NCBI GenBank assembly: GCA_023266195.1 | Contig: JAHFRP010000002.1 | Location: forward strand, 154,779-218,778 | DNA length: 64,000 nucleotides | Direction: 5' to 3' | Source of the DNA: Sulfuricella sp. | GTDB taxonomy: Bacteria; Pseudomonadota; Gammaproteobacteria; Burkholderiales; Sulfuricellaceae | Shown here: positions 6,158 to 62,826 of the stretch, one piece after another | Layout of the letters: every line of letters begins with the position of its first letter | How positions within the stretch are numbered: the first letter of the stretch is position 1 | Position numbers and translations under genes: made by a program | Notes under the pieces: model-generated | The model's database searches: none | The model's input: the letters and a program-made list of their open reading frames with translations, nothing else | Told to the model about the DNA's origin: nothing

Positions 6158-6227
6158 GGGTTCCCCTTTCCGTAGGTTAAGCGACGAAAATCGCCCGCCG
6201 AGCCAGGAACGCAAGAACGGTGCCGGT

Positions 6228-6782
6228 TTAATCCTGGTGGAGCGTTTGAATGGCGCGCCGGTGGTAGCGGAAAACGGTGCGCGAAAGCCACTCCCGTGCT
6301 TCCTCGCTGAGGTGGGTGAAGGTGGCGTAAATCCTGACTCCGCTCTCCTCCTCGCGCACGGCGGCGACGGTCGCCGGCAACACCAGCGGCTGCGGCAGCT
6401 TGGGGCTGATATAAGCAGAGATGAGAATGCCCTCGCCCGGCATGGGCGCGCTCATGCCACAAATCCATTCCATGCCGGTGGCGCCGATGAACAGAGGGCA
6501 GGCGGGGGGTAGGGCGGTGTTCTGGGTCAGCAGCTTGGCGACCAGGTTAAGCGCGAGGTCGATTTTGAATTCGAGGCGCTCCAGCACTTTTACCTGGCCG
6601 GCGCCTTGGCTGCCTTCACTGTCCGGCTGCAATGCCTCGATCGTCGCCAGCGCCCGCAGCAGCGTGACATTACCGTACATCCACATGGCGATGTCGTTGT
6701 CCGATGGCGCCAGTTCGGCTTGCCAGCTCATGGGCAGGGTGGCGGGGCAGTAAACGCCGTCCTCAGCGAAGATTTTATCCAT
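6228..6782 (-). CDS. Atypical PilZ-domain (tPilZ-like) c-di-GMP receptor
   Basis: LLRALATIE...LERLEFKIDLAL coiled segment and C-terminal LSRTVFRYHRRAI resemble the Xanthomonas-type atypical PilZ family; start set at ATG 6782 (184 aa). Confidence 0.72.
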   Translation of the reverse strand: MDKIFAEDGVYCPATLPMSWQAELAPSDNDIAMWMYGNVTLLRALATIEALQPDSEGSQGAGQVKVLERLEFKIDLALNLVAKLLTQNTALPPACPLFIGATGMEWICGMSAPMPGEGILISAYISPKLPQPLVLPATVAAVREEESGVRIYATFTHLSEEAREWLSRTVFRYHRRAIQTLHQD

Positions 6783-6831
6783 CAAGCAGTTTCCGCAGTG
6801 GTTAATGACAGCATAGCAGTTCCCCTGCCGC

Positions 6832-7251
6832 TCACTCGCGCGTATTGGACTGGTGCGCGAAGGCGGTGAGTTCGACCAGCGGCTGCGGTTCCCAGCCGGG
6901 CTTGCGGAATTCCGCCACGACATTGGTGAAGATCCCGCCGCGCACGTAGAATTTGGCCGTCAGGCGCATGAAGCGCGGTTGGGTGGCGGCCGCGAGATCG
7001 TTCAGGATGCGGTTGGTGACCGCCTCGTGGAAGGCGCCTTCGTTGCGGAACGACCAGATGTACATTTTCAGGCTTTTGAGCTCGACGCAGCGGCGGTCGG
7101 CGATGTAGTCGAGATACAGCGTGGCGAAATCGGGCTGGCCGGTTTTGGGGCAAAGGCAGGTGAATTCCGGGATTTCCATGTGGATATGGTAATCGCGCTC
7201 GGGGTTCGGGTTGTCGAAGGTTTCCAGAGCTTTGCTCGGTTGGCTGGACAT
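6832..7251 (-). CDS. queF: NADPH-dependent preQ0 reductase (short type)
   Basis: [33 protein letters not shown] motifs; start at ATG 7251. Confidence 0.96.
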
Positions 7252-7302: not shown

Positions 7303-7387
7303 GAGTCAGGAGTGAGGAGTGAAGAGTAAAACCTCGGCGGTGAGGCTTTTGACTTGACTCCTCACTCCCGGCTCCTCGCTCTTCACT
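7303..7387. repeat. Heptamer-periodic inverted repeat (GAGTNAG / ACTCCTC)
   Basis: Left arm gagtcag-gagtgag-gagtgaa-gagt, right arm actcctc-actcccg-gctcctc-gctcttc; same family at 46577-46656. Confidence 0.8.
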
Positions 7388-7394
7388 GAACTCT

Positions 7395-10300
7395 ATGCGC
7401 CTGACCCACATCAAACTCGCCGGCTTCAAGTCCTTCGTCGATCCCACCGCGATCCCCGTTCCGGGGCAGCGCGTCGGCGTGGTCGGCCCCAACGGCTGCG
7501 GCAAGTCCAACGTGATCGACGCCGTGCGCTGGGTGCTGGGCGAATCGCGGGCGCGCGAGCTGCGCGGCGAATCGATGCAGGACGTGATCTTCAGCGGTTC
7601 AGCCACGCGCAAGCCGGTCGGGCGCGCCAGCGTCGAGCTGATTTTCGACAACAGCCTGGGCAAAGCCGCAGGCCAGTGGTCGCAATACGCCGAAATCTCG
7701 GTCAAGCGGGTTTTGACCCGTAGCGGCGAATCCACCTACCACATCAACAACCTCCACGTCCGCCGCCGCGACATTACCGATATCTTTCTCGGCACCGGGC
7801 TGGGCGCGCGCGCCTATGCCATCATCGAACAGGGCATGATCTCGCGCATCATCGAGGCGCGGCCCGAGGAACTGCGCGTGTTCCTGGAGGAAGCCGCCGG
7901 CATTTCCAGATACAAGGAGCGCCGCCGCGAAACCGAGCTGCGCCTGAAGGACGCTCGCGACAACCTGCTGCGGGTCGAGGATGTGCGGCAGGAGCTGGAC
8001 AGGCAGATCGGCAAGCTGGAAGGCCAGGCGGCGGTGGCGGAGCAGTATCTCGCGCTGCAAGTCCGGCTCAAGCTGACGCAGAGTTTGTTGGCACTGGCGA
8101 AAAAACGCGCAGCGGCCGCGCAGTGCGAACGCTGGCAGCGCGAAGTCCAGCGCCTGACCACCGAACTGGAAGCCGAGAACGCGCGCCTGCGCCAGGCCGA
8201 AAGTCAGCTGGAGCGGACGCGGGAAGTCCATTTTGCCGCCAGCGACGCGCTGCACGAAGCGCAGGGCGCACTTTACGCGGCCAACGCCGAAGTCTCGAAG
8301 CTGGAGCAAAACCTCCAGCACCAGCGCGAAAGCCGCCGGCGCCTGGATGCCCAAACTGCCGCGCTGCGCGATCAGCACGCAAGGCTGGAAGCTCAGCGCG
8401 ACCAGGCGCTGGCCGCGTTGCAGCACTGGCGCGGCGAACTGGTTGTGGCCGGGCAGCAGGTTGCAGCGAGCAAAGAACGGGTGCGGCAGGAAACGATTGA
8501 TTTGCCGCTGGCCGAGGAAGGCTTCCACGACGGCCGGCGCCGCCACGGCGACCTGCAAAGAAATCTCGCCCAGGCCGAGCAGACGCGGCAGATCGAGGAA
8601 ACCCACCGCAGCCATGCCCAGCGCAACCTGCAGCAATTGCAGGCAAGAGGGCAGCGCCTGGAGCAGGAAGCGGGCAGTCTGCCGCGTTTCGACATTGCGT
8701 CGCTGACACGGAAAGAGGTCGAACTTGGCGCCGCCGATGGCGCGCTTGCCGCGGTCCAGGGCGAACTGGCGCGGCGGCAGGACAGCCTGCCGGAAATCGA
8801 GCGGGTTGCGCGCGAAGCCAGGGACGGATTGCACGCCGAACAGCGCCAGGCCACCGAACTGGAAGCGCGGCTGAACGCGCTCCTGCACGTGCAAAACCGG
8901 CTCGACCAGAACCACAAGCTGCAAGCCTGGCTGGCGAAGCACCGTCTGGAAAAACTGCCGCGCCTGTGGCAAAGCCTGAAGATCGAAGCAGGCTGGGAGG
9001 ACGCGCTGGAAAGCGCGCTGGGCGAGCGCCTGAACGGCATCGCGCTGGAAAGCCTCGATCAGGCGAGCGCTTGGCTGATGGACGCACCGCCGGCGGTGGT
9101 CACGGTGTTCGAAGCGTCGGCTGGTACGCCAAGCGTGGGTACGGCCAGTGTGGGTACGGCTTCAGCCGTACATGAGGATCCACAGTCTGACCCGTTCCAG
9201 CCGTTGAGCAGCTATCTTTCCTTTGACGGCGAACCCCAGGCATCGCTGGCCGATTGGCTTGACGGTGTCTACGCGGTCGAAGACGCCGCGACCGGCTTGG
9301 CCAGGCGCCGCGATCTCCCCGTCGGCGCCATGCTGGTGTCGCGCGAAGGGCATGTTTTCACCCGGCATGCGGTGCGTTTTCATGCGCCGCAAAGCGAGCT
9401 TCACGGCGTGCTGGCGCGCCAGCGCGAGATCGATGCTTTGCAGGGGGAGCTGGCGCCACGGCTAGAGGCGCTGGCGCGGCGGCAGGCTGCGGCGGTCCGG
9501 GCCGAAGGGGCGCTGGCCCGGCTGCGGCAGGAGATCGCGCAGCTGCGCGGCGAGACCGCCGAGGCGCAGCAGAAACAGCACCGCCTGCAGCTGGAGGTGC
9601 AGCGGCTCGGCCAGTCCAGGCAGCAGGCCGAGCAGCGCCGGGCCGCGATCTCCGCGGAGCAGGCCGAGATCGGCGCACAGCTTGAGGCGGAGGGCGGGCA
9701 GCTGGCCGCGGCGGAAGAAAAACTGACGCTGGCCCGGAATGAAATCGCGGCGCTGCGGGAACGGTTGGACCGGACCCGGCAGGAACGAGCGGAATTGGAA
9801 CAGCGCGTCAACCGGCAGCGCGAGGCGCTGCGGCAGGCCGAGCGCGCGGCGCAGGAGGCGGTTTTCGTCGAGCAAAACTGCCTGAACAAGATCGGCGAGT
9901 CGGAGTCGTCGTCCGCGCAACTGGCGGAGCAGGCGCAAACGACCGGCGCTCAGCTCGAAACGCTGTGCGCCGAGCAGCAGCGGGGCGGCGAGGAGTCCTT
10001 GCAGCAGGCGTTGCAGCAGGCGCTCGCCGAGCGGCAGGACAGGGAGCAAACCCTGGCAGCGGCGCGCGACGTCCTGGCGGGCGCGGCGAACAGTCTGCGC
10101 GATCTGGAGCAGCAGCGCATGGCGAGCGAGCAGAAACAGCAGCCGCTGCGCGACCGGATCGGCGAGGCGAGGCTGAAGGAGCAGGAGGCGCGGCTCGGCC
10201 AGGAGCAGTACGAAGGCCAGCTCAAGGCCGCCGGCGCGGACGAAACGGCGCTGGCGCGGGAGCTGGAAAAAGCGGCGAAGCCACAGGTCCTGCAAGGCGA

Positions 10301-10955
10301 GATCGTCCGGCTGGGGGCCGAAATCGAAGCGCTCGGCGCGGTGAACCTGGCGGCGTTGGAAGAACTACAAACCAGCCGCGAGCGCAAGGGCTATCTCGAA
10401 GCTCAGGCGAGTGACTTGAACCAGGCGATCGATACGCTGGAGCAGGCGATCCGCCGCATCGACCGGGAAACGCGGGAGCGTTTGCAAGCGACATTCGACG
10501 CGGTCAATCGCGGCTTCGGCGAGCTGTTCCCGTCGCTGTTCGGCGGCGGCCATGCGCGCCTGGTGCTGACCGGCGAAGAAATCCTCGATGCCGGCGTGCA
10601 GATCGTCGCGCAGCCGCCGGGTAAGAAGAACAGCTCGATTCACCTGCTGTCCGGCGGCGAGAAGGCGCTGACCGCGCTGGCGCTGACCTTCTCCCTGTTT
10701 CAGCTCAACCCGGCGCCGTTCTGCCTGCTCGACGAGGTGGACGCGCCGCTCGACGACTCGAATACCGAACGCTTTTGCGAGATGGTGAAGAAAATGTCGA
10801 AAGAGACCCAGTTCATCTACATCAGCCATAATAGAATCACCATGGAAATGGCGGAGCAGCTGGTCGGCGTGACCATGCAGGAAATGGGCGTGTCGCGCGT
10901 GGTGGCGGTGGATATCGAACAAGCGCTGCGGATGAGCGAAGCGGCGTCCGCCTGA
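7395..10955 (+). CDS. smc: Chromosome segregation protein SMC
   Basis: 1186 aa; Walker A GPNGCGKSN, coiled coils, hinge, LSGGE signature, Walker B LLDEVDAPLD. Confidence 0.97.
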   Translation: MRLTHIKLAGFKSFVDPTAIPVPGQRVGVVGPNGCGKSNVIDAVRWVLGESRARELRGESMQDVIFSGSATRKPVGRASVELIFDNSLGKAAGQWSQYAEISVKRVLTRSGESTYHINNLHVRRRDITDIFLGTGLGARAYAIIEQGMISRIIEARPEELRVFLEEAAGISRYKERRRETELRLKDARDNLLRVEDVRQELDRQIGKLEGQAAVAEQYLALQVRLKLTQSLLALAKKRAAAAQCERWQREVQRLTTELEAENARLRQAESQLERTREVHFAASDALHEAQGALYAANAEVSKLEQNLQHQRESRRRLDAQTAALRDQHARLEAQRDQALAALQHWRGELVVAGQQVAASKERVRQETIDLPLAEEGFHDGRRRHGDLQRNLAQAEQTRQIEETHRSHAQRNLQQLQARGQRLEQEAGSLPRFDIASLTRKEVELGAADGALAAVQGELARRQDSLPEIERVAREARDGLHAEQRQATELEARLNALLHVQNRLDQNHKLQAWLAKHRLEKLPRLWQSLKIEAGWEDALESALGERLNGIALESLDQASAWLMDAPPAVVTVFEASAGTPSVGTASVGTASAVHEDPQSDPFQPLSSYLSFDGEPQASLADWLDGVYAVEDAATGLARRRDLPVGAMLVSREGHVFTRHAVRFHAPQSELHGVLARQREIDALQGELAPRLEALARRQAAAVRAEGALARLRQEIAQLRGETAEAQQKQHRLQLEVQRLGQSRQQAEQRRAAISAEQAEIGAQLEAEGGQLAAAEEKLTLARNEIAALRERLDRTRQERAELEQRVNRQREALRQAERAAQEAVFVEQNCLNKIGESESSSAQLAEQAQTTGAQLETLCAEQQRGGEESLQQALQQALAERQDREQTLAAARDVLAGAANSLRDLEQQRMASEQKQQPLRDRIGEARLKEQEARLGQEQYEGQLKAAGADETALARELEKAAKPQVLQGEIVRLGAEIEALGAVNLAALEELQTSRERKGYLEAQASDLNQAIDTLEQAIRRIDRETRERLQATFDAVNRGFGELFPSLFGGGHARLVLTGEEILDAGVQIVAQPPGKKNSSIHLLSGGEKALTALALTFSLFQLNPAPFCLLDEVDAPLDDSNTERFCEMVKKMSKETQFIYISHNRITMEMAEQLVGVTMQEMGVSRVVAVDIEQALRMSEAASA
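9135..9172 (+). repeat. REP-like palindrome (family C) in frame within smc
   Basis: 9149-9172 TGTGGGTACGGCTTCAGCCGTACA matches intergenic 38885-38908 at 23/24; partial tandem copy at 9135-9149. Confidence 0.8.
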
Positions 10956-15635: not shown

Positions 15636-15747
15636 GTTTGGTTATATCAGAAGCCGAATTTGCTGAAGTCAGTGTACTGGCGGTAGAAGTAGGTAGAATC
15701 GTCGGCGGATTGCGCGCGCCCATAAAACGTCAAATTTAAACCCGTCC

Positions 15748-15773
15748 ACTCAGGACTCAGCACTCAGGACTCA
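15748..15773. repeat. Heptamer tandem repeat (ACTCAGG/ACTCAGC) x3.7
   Basis: actcagg-actcagc-actcagg-actca directly before the start at 15778. Confidence 0.7.
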
Positions 15774-23154: not shown

Positions 23155-26100
23155 ATGCTCAAACTGCGCGGCGGCAACGCCCTTTCCTCCTTCCGTCTCG
23201 AAAAATTGATGCAGGGCCTGCGCGAAGCCGCGCCCGCCGTTTCCCACGTCCACGCCGAATACTGGCATTTCGCCGCCGCCCGCCGCGAACTGGAAGCGCA
23301 GGAGCTGGCCGTGCTGGAAAAAATCCTGACCTACGGCCCGGCGTCGATGGTGGAGGAGCCGCAGGGCGAATTGTTCCTGGTGGTGCCGCGCATCGGCACG
23401 ATTTCGCCGTGGTCGTCGAAAGCTTCGGACATCGCCAGCCATTGCGGGCTGGAAGCCGTCGAGCGGCTCGAGCGCGGGGTGGCTTTCTACGTGCAGAAGC
23501 GCGACGGCACGGCGCTTGCGGCGGAGGAAAAAGCGGCGCTGCTGCCGCTGATTCATGACCGCATGACCGAAGCGGTGCTGGCCGATTTCGATTCCGCCGA
23601 CAAGCTGTTCCGCCATTTCGAGCCGGCGCCCTTCGCCAGCGTGGACATCCTCGGCCAGGGCCAAGCGGCGCTGGAGGCGGCCAACCGCGAAATGGGGCTG
23701 GCGCTGTCGCCGGACGAGATCGAATACCTGGTGGCCAACTTCAGCCGCATCGGCCGCAACCCGACCGACGTCGAGCTGATGATGTTCGCGCAAGCCAATT
23801 CCGAACACTGCCGCCACAAGATTTTCAACGCGGACTGGGTTATCGACGGCGTGCCGCAGACGAAATCGCTCTTCGCCATGATCCGCAACACCCACCAGCA
23901 AAGCCCGCGCGGCACGGTGGTGGCCTATTCCGACAACTCCTCGATCATCGAGGGCTTCACGGTCAGGCGCTTCTATCCGCGGGAAGGCCATGCCTACGGC
24001 TACGCCGAGGACAACGCGCAGATTCTGATGAAGGTGGAAACCCACAACCACCCCACCGCGATTTCGCCCTTTCCCGGCGCCGCGACCGGCTCGGGCGGCG
24101 AGATTCGCGACGAAGGCGCGACCGGCCGCGGCTCCCGGCCCAAGGCCGGCCTGACCGGATTTTCGGTGTCGAATTTGAATATTCCGGGGTTTAAGCAGCC
24201 TTGGGAATATTACATCTCGGACGCCCACGCCGACCCTCTCCCCAACCCTCTCCCTGCACCCGCAAGGAGTGTCCCCGCCGAGAGCGGCGGCAAAGCCGCT
24301 CGCTCTGGCGAGACGGGAGAGGGGGCAATGGAGGAAGGCGCTTGTTTTGATCGATTCGGCAAGCCGAATCGCATCGCCTCGGCCCTGCAGATCATGCTCG
24401 ACGGCCCGATCGGCGGCGCGGCGTTCAACAACGAGTTCGGCCGCCCCAACCTGGCCGGCTATTTCCGCACTTACGAGGAGCAGGTGGCGGGCGAGATGCG
24501 CGGCTACCACAAGCCGATCATGCTGGCCGGCGGCGTCGGCAACATCTCCGCCAGCCACGCCCAAAAGCACCAGATCACGCCGGGCGCGCTGATCATCCAG
24601 CTCGGCGGTCCCGCCATGCTGATCGGCCTGGGCGGCGGCGCGGCGTCCAGCATGGATACCGGCGCCAATGCCGAGAACCTGGATTTCGACTCGGTCCAGC
24701 GTGGCAACCCGGAAATGGAGCGCCGCGCCCAGGAGGTGATCGACCGCTGCTGGCAGCTGGGCGACAAGAACCCGATCGTCTCGATCCACGACGTCGGCGC
24801 GGGCGGCCTGTCCAACGCCTTGCCCGAGCTGGTGAACGATTCCGGGCGCGGCGGCCGCTTCCATCTGCGCGCCATCCGCAACGAAGAGCCGGGCATGTCG
24901 CCGATGCAGATCTGGAGCAACGAAGCGCAGGAGCGCTACGTGCTCGCCATCAAGCCGGAGGATTTCGCTCAGTTCGAGGCGATTTGCCGGCGCGAGCGCT
25001 GCCTTTACGCGGTGGTCGGCGAGGCAACGGCCGAGCAGCGGCTGGTGCTGGAAGACAGCTATTTCAACAACCGGCCGATCGACATGGATTTGGCGGTGCT
25101 GCTCGGCAAGCCGCCGAAAATGACGCGCAACGTCGCGCGTGTGGCGCGGGAACTGCCGGCTTTCGATACCGCCGGGCTTGACCTCGACGAGGCGGCTTTC
25201 CGCGTTTTACGCCTGCCGGCGGTGGCGGACAAGACCTTTCTGATTTCCATCGGCGACCGCACCGTCGGCGGCATGACCGCGCGCGACCAGTTCGTCGGCC
25301 CCTGGCAGATTCCGGTGGCGGACGTGGCGGTGAGCCTGGCCGGCTTCGAGGAATATCGCGGCGAAGCCTTCGCCATGGGCGAACGCACGCCGCTGGCGCT
25401 GATCGACCCGGCCGCTTCGGGGCGCATGGCGATCGGCGAGGCGATCACCAATATTGCCGCCGCCTCCATCGCCGAAATCGGCGACATCAAGCTTTCCGCC
25501 AACTGGATGGCGCCCGCCGGCCACCCCGGCGAGGACGCCGCGCTGTACGACACGGTGCGTGCGGTGGGCATGGAATTGTGTCCGGAGCTCGGCATCGGCA
25601 TCCCGGTGGGCAAGGATTCGATGTCGATGAAAACCGTGTGGCAGGAGGACGGCGGCAAGAAGGAAGTCACCGCGCCGCTGTCGCTGATCGTTTCCGCCTT
25701 CGCGCCGTGCATCGACGCGCGCCTGACGCTGACCCCGCAACTGCGCACCGACGCCGGCGAAACCGACCTGACCCTGATCGATCTCGGCCAGGGCAGGAAC
25801 CGCCTCGGCGGCTCGGCGCTGGCGCAGGTCTACAAACAGATCGGCAACCAGGCGCCGGACGTGGCGAACGCGGCGCAGCTCAAGGCGTTTTTCGACACCG
25901 TGCAGCAGATCAACCGCGACGGCAAATTGCTCGCCTACCACGACCGCTCCGACGGCGGCCTGTTCGCCGTGTTGTGCGAAATGATGTTCGCCGGCCACTG
26001 CGGCGTGACGGTCGATCTGGGCGAATCGGGCAATATTTTCGCCGCGCTGTTCAGCGAGGAACTGGGCGCGGTGCTGCAGGTGAAGCGCGGCGACACCGCG

Positions 26101-27165
26101 GCCGTGAAAAGCGCATTCCAGAGCGCCGGCCTGGGCGCCGAACTGCGCGTGATCGGCACGCTGAACGCGGACGACCGCCTCGCCATCCGGCGCGCCGGCA
26201 CGGAAGTGTTCGGCCATTCCCGCATCGAACTGCAACGCGCCTGGTCAGAAACCACCAGCCGGATGCAGGCGCTGCGCGACAACCCGCAATGCGCCGCGCA
26301 GGAATACGACCGCATCCTGGACGGCGGCGATCCCGGACTGCATGCCGCACTCGGCTTCGACCTGAACGACGACGTCGCTGCCCCGTATATCGCCAGCGGC
26401 AAACGCCCGCGCATGGCGATCCTGCGCGAGCAGGGCGTCAACGGCCAGGTGGAAATGGCCGCCGCCTTCGACCGCGCCGGCTTCGACGCGGTGGACGTGC
26501 ACATGAGCGACATCATCGAAGGCCGCGTCGCGCTCAGGGATTTCCGCGGCTTTGCTGCCTGCGGCGGCTTCTCGTTCGGCGACGTGCTGGGCGCGGGCGA
26601 GGGCTGGGCCAAATCCATCCTGTTCAACAGCCGCGCCCGCGACGAGTTCGAGGCGTTCTTCCGGCGCAGCGACACCTTCGCCCTGGGCGTGTGCAACGGC
26701 TGCCAGATGATGAGCAACCTGTACTCCATCATCCCCGGCGCGGAAAACTGGGCGCATTTCGTGCGCAACAAATCGGAGCAGTTCGAAGCGCGCTTCGTCA
26801 TGGTGGAAGTGCCGCAAAGCCCGTCGCTGTTCCTCGACGGCATGGCCGGCAGCCGCATGCCCATCGTCGTGGCGCACGGCGAAGGCTACGCCGAATTCCG
26901 CAGCCCCGAGCAGATGCAGGCCGCCCAGGTGGCGCTGCGTTTCGTCGACAACCGCGGCAACCCGACCGAAACCTATCCGTCCAACTCCAACGGCTCGGCC
27001 CAGGGCATCACCGGCCTGACCACGCCGGACGGCCGCTTCACCATCATGATGCCGCACCCGGAACGCGTGTTCCGCGCGGTGCAGCACTCATGGCATCCGG
27101 AGGGTTGGGGCGAAGACGGGCCGTGGATGCGGATGTTCAGGAATGCGAGGAAGTGGGTGGGGTAG
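23155..27165 (+). CDS. purL: Phosphoribosylformylglycinamidine synthase (large type)
   Basis: 1336 aa; [39 protein letters not shown]. Confidence 0.98.
24234..24325 (+). repeat. CCCTCTCCC/GGGAGAGGG palindromic element in frame within purL
   Basis: ccctctccccaaccctctccc (24234-24254) pairs with gggagaggggg (24315-24325) around an inner hairpin agcggc-ggcaaa-gccgct. Confidence 0.75.
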
Positions 27166-37742: not shown

Positions 37743-38237
37743 TCACCGCTCCCACACCACCCGCAGCAAGTCCTCCTGCTCGTTGTAGTGAAATTCCAGG
37801 TCGCCCTTGTAGGCGTGATGCAGCGCTTCGCCGATGTCGCGGGCGAGGTGGATTTCGGTAGTGGTGATCAGGATGCCGCCATCTTCGTCCTCGATCTTGA
37901 TGATCCGCTCCAGCGGGTGTTCCGCCTTGGCACGGGTTTCCTCGTTTTTTACCAGGTTCAGCAGTTCTTCCCGATGTTCCTGGAGAAAAGGCCCGCCCAC
38001 GGTCACGAAGCCGGCAGGCAATTCGTCCTGGATGCGATGGCAGGCGGGGCAGATTTCCTCGTGGGCATCGGCGGGCTTCGGCGCCCACTGCCAGCGCCCC
38101 TGGTGAAACACGGCCCCGCACACCGGACAACTGGTGGGCTCGGCCGGCTTCAGGCGCGCCTGATAGGCGTCGTGCCTGAACTCCTGAATCAGGCGATCCC
38201 GCCGGATGGGTTCGAAACCTGCAAATCGGGTTTTCAT
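37743..38237 (-). CDS. BCAM0308-family protein
   Basis: HDAY, CPVCGAVFHQGRWQW, CPACHRI, EHPLERII, HLARDIGEALHHAYKG. Confidence 0.85.
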   Translation of the reverse strand: MKTRFAGFEPIRRDRLIQEFRHDAYQARLKPAEPTSCPVCGAVFHQGRWQWAPKPADAHEEICPACHRIQDELPAGFVTVGGPFLQEHREELLNLVKNEETRAKAEHPLERIIKIEDEDGGILITTTEIHLARDIGEALHHAYKGDLEFHYNEQEDLLRVVWER

Positions 38238-38253
38238 GATTATTCTCCTTGAG

Positions 38254-38766
38254 CTATTTCGCGCTTTTTCTCGCCATCCTGAGCATTTCCTGCATGAAAA
38301 CCGGCAGGTCGGCGGGCTGTCGGGAAGTGACCAGGTTGCCGTCCACCACGACTTCGCTGTCTTCGTAGAGGGCGCCCGATTCCTTCAGTTCGTCGGCGAC
38401 GGAAGGGTAGCAGGTGGCGTGCCGCCCGGTGAGCACGCCGGCCGTGGTCAGGATTTGCGGCCCATGGCAGATCGCCGCGACCGGTTTATTCTTGCGGAAA
38501 AAATCCTTCGCGATTTCCAGGGCTGCCGGCTCCTTGCGCAAGGCCGCCGGCGCTTTGCCGCCGGGCAGTACGAGGAGATCGTAATCGTCCGGGTTGACGT
38601 CCCGCAGCGCCTTGTCCACCTCGACTTCATAGCCATGCTTGCCGATGATTCTCCTCCGCGAAACCGAAGCGACCTCCACCTTGAAGCCTTCTTCCTTCAG
38701 CCGATAATAGGGCACCAGAAGCTCGGTATCCTCGAAATGGTCCGCGCTGACGATCAATGCTTTCAT
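38254..38766 (-). CDS. PfpI/DJ-1 family protein
   Basis: FEDTEL, LVLPGG, AICHGPQIL nucleophile elbow, LVTSRQPADL. Confidence 0.93.
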   Translation of the reverse strand: MKALIVSADHFEDTELLVPYYRLKEEGFKVEVASVSRRRIIGKHGYEVEVDKALRDVNPDDYDLLVLPGGKAPAALRKEPAALEIAKDFFRKNKPVAAICHGPQILTTAGVLTGRHATCYPSVADELKESGALYEDSEVVVDGNLVTSRQPADLPVFMQEMLRMARKSAK

Positions 38767-38884
38767 GACGACCTCCTTCAGAATTGCTTGGGCCGCGTGG
38801 CGGCTTGCCTGGAATCATTATAGTCAACGGTTTTGGGGCGGAAGGGCGGCCAGTGCCGGAGTTGCGGAGTTGCCGGAGTTGTGT

Positions 38885-38932
38885 TGTGGGTACGGCTTTA
38901 GCCGTACAGTCAGGCTGAAAGCCTGACCCACA
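38885..38932. repeat. REP doublet, family C (GTGGGT type)
   Basis: tgtgggtacggctttagccgtaca followed by inverted related arm gtcaggctgaaagcctgacccaca. Confidence 0.85.
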
Positions 38933-38993
38933 GCAGCATCGATGAGAAAGCTTTCAGCCACGGATTGCCGCGAATCGAATCAAGCTTCCGTCT

Positions 38994-41315
38994 TCACACA
39001 AACAATTCCTCCGCCGGCATCGGCCGCGCGAAGCGATAGCCTTGCGCCTCGTCGCACTGCTGGCGCCGCAGTAGGGAAAGCTGGCGTTCGTCCTCGACGC
39101 CTTCGGCGATCGTCTTGAGGTTCAGGCTGCGGGCCATCTGGATGATGGCAAGGACGATGGCCGCATCGTTGGGGTTGTCGGCCATGTCGTGGACGAAGGA
39201 CTGGTCGATTTTCAGCTTGTCCACATTGAAGCGCGTGAGGTAGGAGAGGCTCGAATAGCCGGTGCCGAAATCGTCGATGGAAAGATTCACGCCGAGCGCC
39301 TTGAGCCGCTGCAACGTGGCCAGCACTTTTTCGGTGTCCTGAATCAGGATGGATTCGGTCAATTCGAGTTCGAGCAGGGCGGGGTCCAGCCCCGATTCGG
39401 TCAGCGCCTGCGTGACGCTCGTTTCCAGATTGCCGCGCTTGAATTGCACCGACGAGAGATTCACGGCGACGACCAGGTCGGGCAACCCGGCGCGCTGCCA
39501 TACGGCCGCCTGGCGGCACGCTTCGCGCAGCACCCAGTCGCCGATCGGCACGATGAACCCGCTGTCTTCGGCAATCGAGATGAAGCGCTTGGGCGGCACC
39601 ATGCCGAGTTCGGGGTGGTTCCAGCGGATCAGCGCCTCGGCGCCGATCACGGCGCCGCTATCGAGGTTGACCTGCGGCTGGTAGAGCAGTGCGAATTCGC
39701 CCATCTGCACCGCCTGCCGCAGCCCATTGCGCATGTACAGATGTTCGATGGCGTCGGCATTCATCTGCTCGGTGTGGAAGCGGTAAGTGTTCCGCCCCGC
39801 GCCCTTGGCCTGGTACATGGCCGTATCGGCCTTCTTGAGCAGAGTGTCGAAGTCGTCGCCGTCGTCCGGATAAACCGCGATGCCGATCGACAGGGAGGTG
39901 GACAATTCATAATTGTCGATGCCGAACGTTTCGCCCATGCGCTCCAGAATCTTTTCGGATACTTCGATGATGGCCTCGTTGCCGCCCACGTCGGGCAGCA
40001 CGACCAGAAACTCGTCCCCACCCTGCCGGCTCAGCGTATCGGAGTCGCGCAGGCATTCGCGCAACCGCGCCGCAACCCCCTTGAGCAGGGCGTCGCCGAC
40101 GATGTGGCCGAGCGAATCGTTGATGGTCTTGAAATTGTCGAGATCGAGAAACAACAGCGCGGTCTTGGTGCCGACGCGCTCGGCCGCCGAGATGGCCAGT
40201 TCCACACGGTCCTTGGTCAGCAGGCGGTTCGGCAGTTCGGTCAGCGCGTCGTGGTAGGCCAGGAACTCGATCCGGGCTTCGGCCGCCTTGCGTGCGGTGA
40301 CATCCCTGGTTACGCCGACTAGGGCATAAGCCTTGCCTTCCGTGTCCCGCAGCGGCGTCGCGTGGGTTTCCAGCCAGCGCCGCGTGCCGCGCTTGCCAAT
40401 AATCGGGAATTCGAGCATGCCGGTCTCGCCGGCGAAAACTCGCTGTTCCAACTCCAGGAAGGACGAACGATATTCCGGGTCGATAAACCGCGACAACCCG
40501 AATTGCTTGGCCTCTTCGAGCGAGTCGACTTCCAGCATGGCCAGGCCGGCGCGGTTCATCTGCAACAGCCGGCCGTCGAGGGCAAGGACTTTCACGCACT
40601 CCGGCTCGTTTTCCAGAATGGCGTCCAGGAATTCCTTCTGTTCCTTCAACGCCTGTTCGGATCGTCTGCGTTCGGAAATGTCGCAGTGCGTGCCGATCAT
40701 GCGTAGCGGGCGGCCATCCTCGGTGCGGCTGACCACCATGCCGCGGGCGAGTATCCATTTCCAGCTGCCGTCCTTGCACAACACGCGGTACTCGCTGGCG
40801 TAGCCGGGCGCGCTGCCGTCGAAATGCGCCTGCAGGTCCGCCATGACGCGCGGCAGATCCTGCGGGTGGACGCGTTTATTCCACTCGTCGAGATGGCCGC
40901 CGATCTCGTTTTCGGCGAACCCGAGCATCTCCTTCCAGCGCCTGGAAAAATTCACTTCGCCGCTCTGCACGTTCCAGTCCCACACGCCGTCGCCCGAGCC
41001 TTCCAGTGCGAATTTCCAGCGCTCCTCGCTTTTCTGCAGTTTGGCCCTCTTCGCTGCGAGGATATTCAGGTAGTGGCGGAGCAGCGAAGCCAGCAGCAGC
41101 GAGGTCACGATCACGAACAGCCAGCCCTTGACGGTGCTGATGCGGGCGATGGTGGCCGGATCGCTGAACAGGAGCGATACCAACTGGTCGGATACGATTA
41201 TCCACAGCGCCGAAAAGCCGGCGTAGGAAAGGACGATCTTGGAAACGGTTCCGGCCACGAAGCGATCTGGAGAAACGATGGAATGTCTCGAGTGCCGGTC
41301 GATTGATGAGCTCAT
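38994..41315 (-). CDS. Membrane PAS-PAS-GGDEF-EAL protein
   Basis: Two N-terminal TM, two PAS/PAC, RQGGDEF, AEALIRW, DDFGTGYSSL; start set at ATG 41315 because the longer ORF begins inside a REP. Confidence 0.92.
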   Translation of the reverse strand: MSSSIDRHSRHSIVSPDRFVAGTVSKIVLSYAGFSALWIIVSDQLVSLLFSDPATIARISTVKGWLFVIVTSLLLASLLRHYLNILAAKRAKLQKSEERWKFALEGSGDGVWDWNVQSGEVNFSRRWKEMLGFAENEIGGHLDEWNKRVHPQDLPRVMADLQAHFDGSAPGYASEYRVLCKDGSWKWILARGMVVSRTEDGRPLRMIGTHCDISERRRSEQALKEQKEFLDAILENEPECVKVLALDGRLLQMNRAGLAMLEVDSLEEAKQFGLSRFIDPEYRSSFLELEQRVFAGETGMLEFPIIGKRGTRRWLETHATPLRDTEGKAYALVGVTRDVTARKAAEARIEFLAYHDALTELPNRLLTKDRVELAISAAERVGTKTALLFLDLDNFKTINDSLGHIVGDALLKGVAARLRECLRDSDTLSRQGGDEFLVVLPDVGGNEAIIEVSEKILERMGETFGIDNYELSTSLSIGIAVYPDDGDDFDTLLKKADTAMYQAKGAGRNTYRFHTEQMNADAIEHLYMRNGLRQAVQMGEFALLYQPQVNLDSGAVIGAEALIRWNHPELGMVPPKRFISIAEDSGFIVPIGDWVLREACRQAAVWQRAGLPDLVVAVNLSSVQFKRGNLETSVTQALTESGLDPALLELELTESILIQDTEKVLATLQRLKALGVNLSIDDFGTGYSSLSYLTRFNVDKLKIDQSFVHDMADNPNDAAIVLAIIQMARSLNLKTIAEGVEDERQLSLLRRQQCDEAQGYRFARPMPAEELFV

Positions 41316-41342
41316 CACAGCCTGCTGTCCGATTTTCCCCTT

Positions 41343-41397
41343 GTGCGAATTCACCCGCACGAAATCCATTTGCTTGTGCGAATGAATTCGCACCTAC
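41343..41397. repeat. REP doublet, family A (left arm decayed)
   Basis: 41376-41397 identical to 5311-5332; left arm gtgcgaattcacccgcac lacks the GTAG end. Confidence 0.85.
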
Positions 41398-44810: not shown

Positions 44811-46570
44811 GTTTGGCTAAACGCACGTTCGATGCGGTGATCATCGGCGGCGGCGGAGCGGGACTGCGCGCCGCGCTGCAATTGGCCCAGGCCGACCTCA
44901 AGGTGGCGGTGGTGTCCAAGGTGTTCCCGACCCGCTCCCACACGGTTTCAGCCCAGGGCGGCATCGCCGCCAGCCTCGGCAACGTCAACGAGGACAACTG
45001 GCACTGGCACATGTATGACACGGTGAAAGGCTCGGATTACCTGGGCGACCAGGACGCCATCGAGTTCATGTGCCGCCAGGCCAACGAGGCGGTGATCGAA
45101 CTGGAGCACTACGGCATGCCGTTCGACCGCCTGCCCAACGGCAAGATCTACCAGCGCCCGTTCGGCGGCATGACGCAGAATTACGGCGGCGCGCCGGTGA
45201 TGCGCACCTGCGCCGCGGCCGACCGCACCGGCCATGCCATGCTGCACACCTTGTACCAGCGCAACATCGCCGCCAAGACCCACTTTTTCGAGGAATATTT
45301 CGCGCTCGACCTGGTGATGGACGGGCAGGGCTACGCCTTGGGAGTGGTGGCGATGGGCATCGAGTCGGGCGAACCGATTTTCATCGAGGCCCGCGCCACG
45401 CTGATCGCCACCGGCGGGGCGGGGCGCATCTTTTCCGCCACCACCAATGCGTTGATCAATACCGGCGACGGCCTGGGCATGGCCCTGCGCGCCGGCATCC
45501 CGCTCGAAGACATGGAATTCTGGCAGTTCCACCCGACCGGCATCTACGGCGCCGGCGTGCTGGTGACCGAAGGCGTGCGCGGCGAGGGCGGCTACCTGGT
45601 CAACAAGAACGGCGAGCGCTTCATGGAGCGCTACGCACCCAATGCCAAGGACCTCGCCAGCCGCGACGTGGTGTCGCGCGCCATGGCGGTGGAAATCCAC
45701 GAGGGGCGCGGCTGCGGCAAGGACGGCGACCACGTCTACCTCAAGCTCGACCACCTCGGGCCGGACGTGATCAAGCAGCGCCTGCCGGGCATCCGCGAGC
45801 TGTCGTTGAAATTCGCCCACGTCGATCCGATCGAGGCGCCGATTCCCGTGGTGCCGACGGTGCATTACATGATGGGCGGCATTCCCGCCAATATGCAGGG
45901 CCAGGTGATCATGCCGACCCAGACCGGCCCGGAAGAGGCGGTGCCCGGCCTGTATGCCATCGGCGAGTGCGCCTGCGTGTCGGTGCATGGCGCCAACCGC
46001 CTGGGCAGCAATTCCCTGCTCGACCTGATCGTGTTCGGGCGTGCCGCCGGCAACCATGTGATCGAATATCTCAAGGAAAACCCGTTCTCCCGGCCGGTGC
46101 CGAAAGAAGCGCTGGAGCGGCCCATGGCGCGGCTCAGCCGCTGGGACGAAAAGCGCGACGGCATCACGGTGGACGCGCTGCGCGAGGAAATGCGCAAGAC
46201 CATGCAACGGCATTGCGGCGTGTTTCGCACCGAGGAAGTGTTGCAGGAAGGCGTGCGGCAGATGCGGGAAATCGCCGCGAAATTACCCGACGTGGCGTTG
46301 CGCGACCAGAGCAAAGTCTACAACACCGGCCGGATCGAGGCGCTGGAGCTGGAAAACCTGATGGCCGTGGCGCTGGCGACCATGACCGCCGCCGCCGCCC
46401 GCAAGGAAAGCCGGGGCGCCCACGCGCGCGACGACTACCCGCAGCGCGACGACAGCAACTGGCTCAAGCATTCCCTGTATTTCAGCGAGGGCAGCCACCT
46501 CGACTACAAGCCGGTGCGGCTGAAACCGTTGACGGTCGAGACGTTCAAGCCGAAGCCGAGGGTTTATTGA
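44807..46570 (+). CDS. sdhA: Succinate dehydrogenase flavoprotein
   Basis: [16 protein letters not shown] (FAD His), QFHPTG, HGANRLG; start at ATG 44807 (587 aa). Confidence 0.97.
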
Positions 46571-46576
46571 GTTGGA

Positions 46577-46656
46577 AGTGAAGAGTCAGGAGTCGGGAGT
46601 GAAGAGTTAGGTGCGGTCTACTCCTCACTCCTAACTCTTCGCTCCTGACTTTACTC
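46577..46656. repeat. Heptamer-periodic inverted repeat (GAGTNAG family)
   Basis: Same family as 7303-7387; fills the sdhA-sdhB gap. Confidence 0.8.
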
Positions 46657-47589: not shown

Positions 47590-47665
47590 AGTTTTCAGTT
47601 TCCAGTCCAACCCCCACTGGTTTGCCTGGCCGTTACTGATAACTGACGACTGACAACTGATAACT
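47590..47665. repeat. Heptamer-periodic inverted repeat (ACTGANA)
   Basis: agttttc-agtttcc-agt ... actgata-actgacg-actgaca-actgata-act. Confidence 0.7.
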
Positions 47666-62804: not shown

Positions 62805-62826
62805 GTCAGACTGAAGCCTGACCGCA
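62805..62826. repeat. Degenerate REP family C arm
   Basis: gtcagactgaagcctgaccgca resembles 38909-38932. Confidence 0.5.

Follow-up and report, generated by a model that had tools for sequence, protein, structure and literature searches.

REP/RAYT systems, which pair repetitive extragenic palindromes (REPs) with a REP-associated tyrosine transposase (RAYT), were reportedly characterised by Nunvar in 2010 and Ton-Hoang in 2012, and REPINs, in which two inverted REPs form one repeated unit, are said to go back to Bertels and Rainey in 2011. Palindromic repeats lying in frame within genes were first described in Rickettsia, as the Rickettsia palindromic elements (RPEs; Ogata et al. 2000, 2002, as cited in PMC3733652). 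Di Nocera, De Gregorio and Rocco (2013) extended this picture to REPs carrying GTAG and CGTC tags, found in frame within genes of many bacteria: the hosts listed include uvrA, dnaE, helicases and tRNA synthetases, dimers code for 20–30 amino acids, and the intragenic copies are argued to occupy flexible linkers or loops (PMC3733652). A GTGG variant of the GTAG tag was recorded there for Opitutus terrae, and RPE-4 and RPE-6 were classed as CGTC-tagged, not GTAG-tagged (PMC3733652). smc, which encodes the chromosome segregation protein SMC, is unmentioned as a REP host in that study and its supplements, and we found no literature on REPs of Sulfuricella. Here we describe a REP within the smc gene of a groundwater Sulfuricella-like bacterium, in a 64-kb stretch of contig JAHFRP010000002.1 (positions 154,779 to 218,778; hereafter the window, in whose numbering coordinates are given unless another locus is named). 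We consider it highly probable that this is a two-armed REP doublet of a RAYT-associated family, embedded in frame in the loop of the SMC hinge most likely since the common ancestor with the sister species Sulfuricella sp. STA_41, tolerated there and then divergently remodelled in the two lineages.

The host gene is intact. The open reading frame (ORF) at 7395–10955 on the forward strand encodes 1186 residues, matched by Pfam SMC_N (residues 3–1167; E 1e-62) and SMC_hinge (residues 521–635), with the Walker A, signature and Walker B motifs legible in its translation, and its homologues from Sulfuricella and other Sulfuricellaceae are named chromosome segregation protein SMC. As the initial annotation of this DNA had reported, the stretch 9149–9172 (TGTGGGTACGGCTTCAGCCGTACA) is identical at 23 of 24 positions to an intergenic sequence at 38885–38908 (TGTGGGTACGGCTTTAGCCGTACA), a single base separating the two on direct reading. 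Allowing at most 3 mismatches, the 22-mer GTGGGTACGGCTTCAGCCGTAC occurs twice in the window, against no occurrence in 100 dinucleotide-preserving shuffles. The two 15-bp units that the annotation had placed ahead of the 24-mer are also there: 9120–9179 reads GCTGGTACGCCAAGC GTGGGTACGGCCAGT GTGGGTACGGCTTCAGCCGTACAT GAGGAT, and Tandem Repeats Finder detects at 9123–9160 a period of 15 bp (2.5 copies, 86% matches, score 55), the successive units being GCTGGTACGCCAAGC, GTGGGTACGGCCAGT and GTGGGTACGGCTTCA. The first two, at 9120–9149 on the forward strand, are partial copies of the REP head and code for AGTPS and VGTAS. The translation runs ...VTVFEAS-AGTPS-VGTAS-VGTAS-AVHEDPQSDPFQPLSSY..., so that AGTPS-VGTAS-VGTAS-AVH spans A576 to H593, in agreement with the earlier reading, and the REP element occupies residues 575–600 within the Pfam hinge domain.

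The extent first proposed for the repeat, 9120–9172, is too short. Following the head copies, the left arm at 9150–9171 (forward strand) consists of the GTGG tag followed by a perfect palindrome (GTACGGCT/TC/AGCCGTAC) and agrees at every base with the consensus of 32 doublets from STA_41. The REP-derived stretch continues to about 9192–9193, where GAGGATCCACAG TCTGACCC represents a decayed right arm or tail; the feature spans 9172–9193 on the same strand (ATGAGGATCCACAGTCTGACCC), codes for HEDPQSDP and holds a right arm reduced to AGGATCCACAGTCTGACC. In an nhmmer search with a profile of the 32 STA_41 doublets, the smc copy matches over 9149–9192 with an E value of 1e-8, at model positions 4–47 of 53, and therefore the entire two-armed doublet is present in smc. 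When folded as RNA it retains the left hairpin alone, and its stability does not exceed that of shuffled sequence (z -0.7).

The 24-mer is indeed a genome-wide repeat. A scan with the query GGGTACGGCTTNAGCCGTAC, covering one genome per species, returned at least 113 loci, at least 51 of them from five Sulfuricella assemblies (STA_41, C21_concoct.bin.102, SRP062349_co5_237, MAG_156 and one further). These hold at least 58 exact left arms, distributed over many contigs, with STA_41 supplying most, and a looser pattern finds 102 single REP units in 457 kb of sampled Sulfuricella DNA; most copies in the sampled loci lie outside long ORFs. The Sulfuricella flanks are conserved and define a unit of 47–48 bp, TGT GGGTACGGCTTCAGCCGTAC A(T) GTCAGGCTGAAGCCTGAC CCACA, which the 32 STA_41 doublets share end to end. 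It comprises two inverted hairpins whose GTGG tags lie on the outer sides, the arms being 1–2 bp apart; reverse-complementing the left half gives the right one, apart from compensated changes (ACGG/CCGT against CAGG/CCTG), and GTGG precedes the palindrome in the aligned copies, a few having at most one base altered. Matches of the same scan in Acidobacteriaceae were considered as members and rejected: they have the 20-mer hairpin in common, but their flanks differ (TCGTATCA upstream and a second, different hairpin downstream), and they were treated as a separate family.

A complete doublet of this kind, TGTGGGTACGGCTTTAGCCGTAC A GTCAGGCTGAAAGCCTGACCCACA, lies in the window at 38883–38934 on the forward strand (nhmmer E 8e-18). 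It contains the 24-mer already mentioned, and the description of that copy as intergenic holds: it is placed between two convergent ORFs, at 38206–38823 (forward) and 38994–41393 (reverse). Its predicted RNA fold has a closing stem and two hairpins (-34.7 kcal/mol, z -6.5). Immediately upstream, at 38854–38881, there is a 9-bp tandem array (TGCCGGAGT, 3.2 copies). A lone hairpin of the right-arm type (GTCAGACTGAAGCCTGAC) is found at 62805–62823 on the forward strand, 23 nt past a stop codon (nhmmer E 0.0018).

The transposase of the family is found in the sister genome. In STA_41, the reverse-strand gene at 6452–6901 of locus L029 encodes a protein of 149 residues that matches NCBIfam NF047646, REP-associated tyrosine transposase, with 158 bits against a cut-off of 80 (E 1e-46), and also Pfam Y1_Tnp. 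Three doublets lie on one side of the gene, and a doublet and a single arm on the other (6202–6441 and 6929–7010); this arrangement is a REPtron, which marks the family as true REP. Within the REPtron region (6180–7030), a spacer of about 50 bp (AGAGAGTGTATTTGCTTTTTCCATGAAGCTACAGCCACGGCCATGGTTGT) recurs after every doublet on one of the two sides.

The element can be compared with the known classes as follows: (i) it is a short palindrome with a stem-loop, GTACGGCT-TC-AGCCGTAC on the left and GTCAGGCT-GA(A)-AGCCTGAC on the right, and carries at one end the unpaired GT[A/G]G tag of REPs, here GTGG. (ii) Its many dispersed copies are chiefly intergenic in Sulfuricella, mainly in STA_41, where the RAYT gene is flanked by the same REPs. 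(iii) The two inverted REPs recur as one unit, as in REPINs, with a spacer of 1–2 bp that is shorter than is typical of them. (iv) As in GTAG REP/RAYT/REPIN systems, a 22-nt unit is made of the tag and then the palindrome, with a stem of 7–8 bp; inverted dimers have their tags outside; most copies are intergenic and downstream of genes; and occasional copies code in frame for about 16–30 residues in housekeeping genes, including a tRNA synthetase. What sets the family apart from known GTAG REPs is the Sulfuricella host, smc as a host gene, the very close arms and the in-frame partial tandem duplications of head or tail borne by its coding copies. (v) In comparison with miniature inverted-repeat transposable elements, the terminal inverted repeats TGTGGGT/ACCCACA are the two REP heads, and the associated enzyme is of the Y1 type, not a DDE transposase. 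The aligned flanks of the REP copies show no obvious target-site duplication. Searches of Rfam gave chance-level matches alone, all under the gathering scores, and no family was assigned.

The likeness to Rickettsia palindromic elements drawn in the initial annotation stands as far as behaviour is concerned: both are palindromic selfish repeats lying in frame in essential genes, tolerated in surface loops or linkers, and coding for a harmless peptide. Kinship does not follow. The Sulfuricella element is a RAYT-associated true REP and not an RPE homologue, its host is a betaproteobacterium and its tag is GTGG, not CGTC, whereas RPE-1 is longer, specific to Rickettsia and without sequence relationship to it. 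Unlike the RPEs, it occurs in a lineage of free-living chemolithotrophs, and a RAYT partner can be identified for it in a sister genome. A further comparison is with in-frame minisatellites (variable number tandem repeats): the 12- and 15-bp units are repeated 2–5 times in frame, and perfectly in STA_41, as slippage predicts; unlike those of bacterial genes, the repeated unit here is the end of a mobile palindrome and not native coding sequence.

An alignment of the hinge segment in 120 homologues shows what the loop looks like without the REP. The segment from ...PPAxVT(V/A)F-E to PL-x-x-(Y/F)V-SW is hypervariable both in length and in sequence. Relatives with an SMC of 1173 residues (P0003, P0007, P0010, P0013, P0021 and P0022) have a short loop, for example EAATGGDGMAPDGAFVPL, and lack the peptide; at the DNA level (L114 1929–2063 and L115 4478–4612) short-loop relatives show no similarity to the REP. 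The window SMC is about 13 residues longer than these proteins, where 15–25 had been anticipated from the sequence, yet about 25 of its residues are REP-derived; therefore the ancestral loop must have been largely replaced or lost. Additional stretches of 12–16 residues in P0008, P0012, P0017, P0018 and P0020 were examined as a second insertion and turned out to be differences in the N-terminal start codon.

STA_41 is the closest other species. Its SMC (L039 2361–6017, 1218 residues, intact) is 85% identical to that of the window, and its gene carries the REP at the same site and in the same frame. There, the copy runs from a partial head unit (GAGGGTACTGCAGGT) through a perfect left arm, a right arm split by a nested 58-bp element, and AGCCTGACCCACAG to five perfect 12-bp CCTGACCCACAG units, giving a loop product of 39 residues and then (PDPQ)4...; the HEDPQSDP of the window is the counterpart of this PDPQ tail, homologous to (CCTGACCCACAG)n. 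The alleles of the two species are thus alike in orientation, in frame, in the partial head unit on the left and the tail units on the right, and in the TTC-NNN-CCG-YTG-AGC context that follows. Therefore a single insertion in the common ancestor is favoured, followed by divergent remodelling. A 99% identical SMC from another assembly (P0001) has the same loop as the window protein.

The position of the insertion was also examined in an AlphaFold2 model of SMC residues 485–710, built with 117 homologues. The mean predicted local distance difference test score (pLDDT) is 90.3; the insertion (model residues 90–117) has values of 50–57 and is modelled without secondary structure, as a coil that follows a strand (VTV) and leads into the next strand-helix element. 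Searching PDB chains by sequence with the hinge segment gave no match; the hinge was confirmed through a fold search, with Foldseek probabilities of 1.0 and template modelling scores of about 0.6 against the solved SMC hinges 5H69, 6WG6 and 1GXL. As far as the model goes, the REP insertion sits in a surface loop, the kind of place in which it had been predicted to be found.

Smc is not the only gene of these bacteria in which this REP lies in frame. The doublet with an AT spacer has one stop-free frame per orientation (forward VGTASAVHVRLKPDPQ, reverse CGSGFSLTCTAEAVPT), and coding copies always use the single open frame of their orientation. Counting as coding only those copies that are bracketed by Pfam domains or lie deep within a protein, we found the same REP in frame in three further genes of STA_41: at about residue 427 of the isoleucyl-tRNA synthetase (L004), where the tRNA-synt_1 match (residues 28–659) spans it; in the linker joining the two halves of a double ABC ATPase (L092); and in a nuclease-family gene of the PD-(D/E)XK type (L105), which has two in-frame copies, one per orientation. 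Many other REPs in long stop-free stretches are not coding and merely precede a start codon or sit near a gene end. One such candidate, in MAG_156 (L101), has a long open stretch around it, but the ABC domain starts only downstream of it, at residue 221, and the copy is probably non-coding.

From these comparisons, the following history can be proposed. In the common ancestor of the window organism and STA_41, a REPIN-like doublet of 47–48 bp would have inserted into the loop between two beta-strands of the hinge. It may have survived because the one stop-free frame of its orientation was the one in use, because it encodes a small, polar peptide (VGTASAVH...PDPQ) with much proline and glycine, and because the loop is hypervariable and tolerant of change. 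In the window lineage, the right hairpin would then have decayed or been partly deleted and the 15-bp head duplicated twice, probably by slippage; in the STA_41 lineage, a second element would have nested in the loop of the right hairpin, and the 12-bp tail would have expanded to five perfect copies. Every length change after the insertion would have been a multiple of three. The idea of a selfish palindrome lying in frame in a chromosome-segregation gene, as the sequence had first been read, is borne out by the genome-wide spread of the repeat, by the shorter loop of the 1173-residue SMC proteins, which lack the peptide, by the low-confidence coil within the hinge model and by the in-frame copies in other genes of STA_41. 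That reading is refined in that the element is a two-armed doublet and not a single hairpin, and in that the event most likely predates the split from STA_41 instead of being recent in this genome.

Several observations weigh against this history. No RAYT gene is present in the 64-kb window, which holds only 2–3 REP copies and so gives little sign of family activity in this genome. The ancestral loop is no longer recognisable, which precludes the reconstruction of a clean insertion, be it by defined junctions or by a target-site duplication. The peptide across the loop of the window SMC, including VGTASVGTASAVHEDPQ, is a translation predicted from the DNA. Finally, other Sulfuricella smc genes have at least two further palindrome families in this loop, as would be expected if the window lineage and STA_41 had each gained the REP independently, the loop being a hot spot or the sole tolerant place in smc. 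The two REP-bearing alleles also differ greatly within the element. However, they agree in orientation, frame, left head unit, right tail units and downstream context, and they are the closest known relatives of each other, apart from the conspecific at 99%; we regard independent gain as unlikely.

The persistence of the loop across speciation, together with the expansion of VGTAS and PDPQ, could also be due to selection favouring a hinge loop that is longer and flexible and alters hinge opening or contact with DNA. Such exaptation would account for a loop kept in two species whose SMC is 85% identical, for length changes that all keep the frame and for the repeated remodelling of the loop within the genus. 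It would also fit the distribution of partial head units, which stand upstream of 6 of 60 exact left arms, 4 of these 6 being coding copies: L039, L092 and L105 have them, similar to the window smc, and the duplications affect 4 of 5 forward coding copies against 2 of about 55 others. However, among the 120 homologues neither the sequence nor the length of the loop is conserved; disorder is predicted for the loop; other lineages have unrelated repeats at this spot, and proteins of unrelated function contain the same peptide; and keeping of the frame is already expected from purifying selection on an important gene. We therefore judge exaptation quite improbable. Neutral tolerance of the REP loop, with little effect on SMC, is the most likely reason for its persistence, a function of the loop being possible but unsupported.

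The reverse direction, in which the dispersed family derived from a fragment of the smc loop, has nothing to recommend it except the shared sequence and is very improbable: dozens of GTGG-tagged palindromes, mostly intergenic, include those that flank a RAYT gene, the sequence is absent from SMC genes beyond the two sister lineages, and the smc copy is the degenerate one, with its decayed right arm and a fold at z -0.7 as against -6.5 for the intergenic doublet. Contigs from two independent groundwater metagenome runs (depths 81 and 47) span 8900–9400, and a metatranscriptome contig spans 9095–9252, all with 0 differences; therefore the smc stretch is no assembly artefact and is present in RNA. 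A chimera, given that metagenome assemblies can misjoin at repeats, or a chance match in low-complexity sequence is scarcely credible when one intact ORF has SMC sequence on both sides, three independent contig sets, RNA among them, agree at every position, none of 100 shuffles reproduced the match and the profile E value is 1e-8.

The REP of smc is a clear new example of a kind of event already known; it brings no new principle and leaves the current understanding of REPs and of SMC unchanged. Its value lies in offering a natural example of selfish palindromes adding residues to essential proteins in which the transposase partner, an uninserted outgroup and two diverged descendants are all at hand. 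Outgroup and descendants display the fate of the element after insertion, in which one hairpin decays and the ends expand in frame. They also point to a position in the SMC hinge that tolerates 13–45 additional residues, useful for tagging or engineering the protein, and they caution annotators that REP-like sequence within a gene need not mean a pseudogene or a misassembly.

Other repeats are found in the same loop in further Sulfuricella metagenome-assembled genomes, where SMC loops carry other palindrome families in frame (L116 11693–11896, L118 11693–11881 and L117 6902–7099), each with copies elsewhere in Sulfuricella DNA. In P0002 (MAG_156, the L116 segment), two copies of a CCCTCTCCCCAACCCTCCCCC/GGGGGAGGG palindrome code for APSPPAGEGWGEG twice; P0014 has two diverged copies of the same palindrome, P0004–6, P0012, P0016 and P0018–20 have loop peptides of the APSPPAGEGWGEG kind, and the motif occurs in about 35 copies in the sampled loci. 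P0011 and P0015 instead have a long GTAG-tagged palindrome (GTAGGGTGCAATAAGCGAAGCGCATTGCAC ... GCAATGCGCTTCGCTTATTGACGCCCTAC) with the peptide VGCNKRSALHHVEQHTAQCASLIDAL, related copies of which exist in STA_41 and between genes on its own contig. That other families occupy this loop supports its tolerance as the main reason for the repeated hits.

purL, which encodes phosphoribosylformylglycinamidine synthase (23155–27165, forward strand), is the second essential gene of the window decorated by a repeat, of a family different from the smc REP. It bears an in-frame insertion of about 48 residues at 24208–24351, located at residues 358–360 of Salmonella PurL (PDB 1T3T), the repeat-derived part covering about 24231–24325. 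The insertion, a CCCTCTCCCCAACCCTCTCCC...GGGAGAGGG palindrome whose loop harbours a 58-bp element, codes for a 33-residue peptide. This element of about 58 bp (CACCCGCAAGGAGTGTCCCCGCC...GGCGAGA) is the one that splits the right arm in STA_41 smc: it is found at L039 4127–4186, at 24256–24315 of the window and in 15 further copies in Sulfuricella loci, always inside a hairpin loop that belongs to a different repeat: its host is the GTGG REP, in the right arm (after GGCT), or a CCCTCTCCCT hairpin. In L026, L027, L085 and L100 it harbours, in turn, another element of about 53 bp. It is possible, though we hold it doubtful, that the Sulfuricella SMC hinge loop is a recurrent landing pad for at least three unrelated palindromic families captured in frame, and that the 58-bp element inserts specifically into hairpin loops, as in the right hairpin of the STA_41 smc REP and the CCCTCTCCC/GGGAGAGGG hairpin of the window purL. 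If so, it would be a mobile element that targets hairpin loops and rides into proteins inside other repeats.

Some minor observations concern smc of other relatives and the window at large. A PhdYeFM antitoxin and PIN toxin gene pair stands directly upstream of smc in two relatives (L116 9315–9988 and L117 4541–5205), and no such pair is present at the corresponding place beside smc of P0001, P0007 and P0014. The SMC of a Sulfurimicrobium sp. (P0062, 1210 residues) has an insertion, ...PHPGPPPHAGEGDVVSLREFRV..., at a different site, in the head-proximal part of the coiled coil and following the counterpart of P0003 residue 949; it resembles the GGGAGAGGGGGACGAGGTCTCGCTTCGCGAGTTT repeat of intergenic Sulfuricella DNA. 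In the window, Tandem Repeats Finder also reports heptamer arrays at 7303–7327, 15747–15773, 46569–46650 and 47635–47665, with the units GAGTGAG, ACTCAGG, GAGTCAG/ACTCCTC and ACTGACA.

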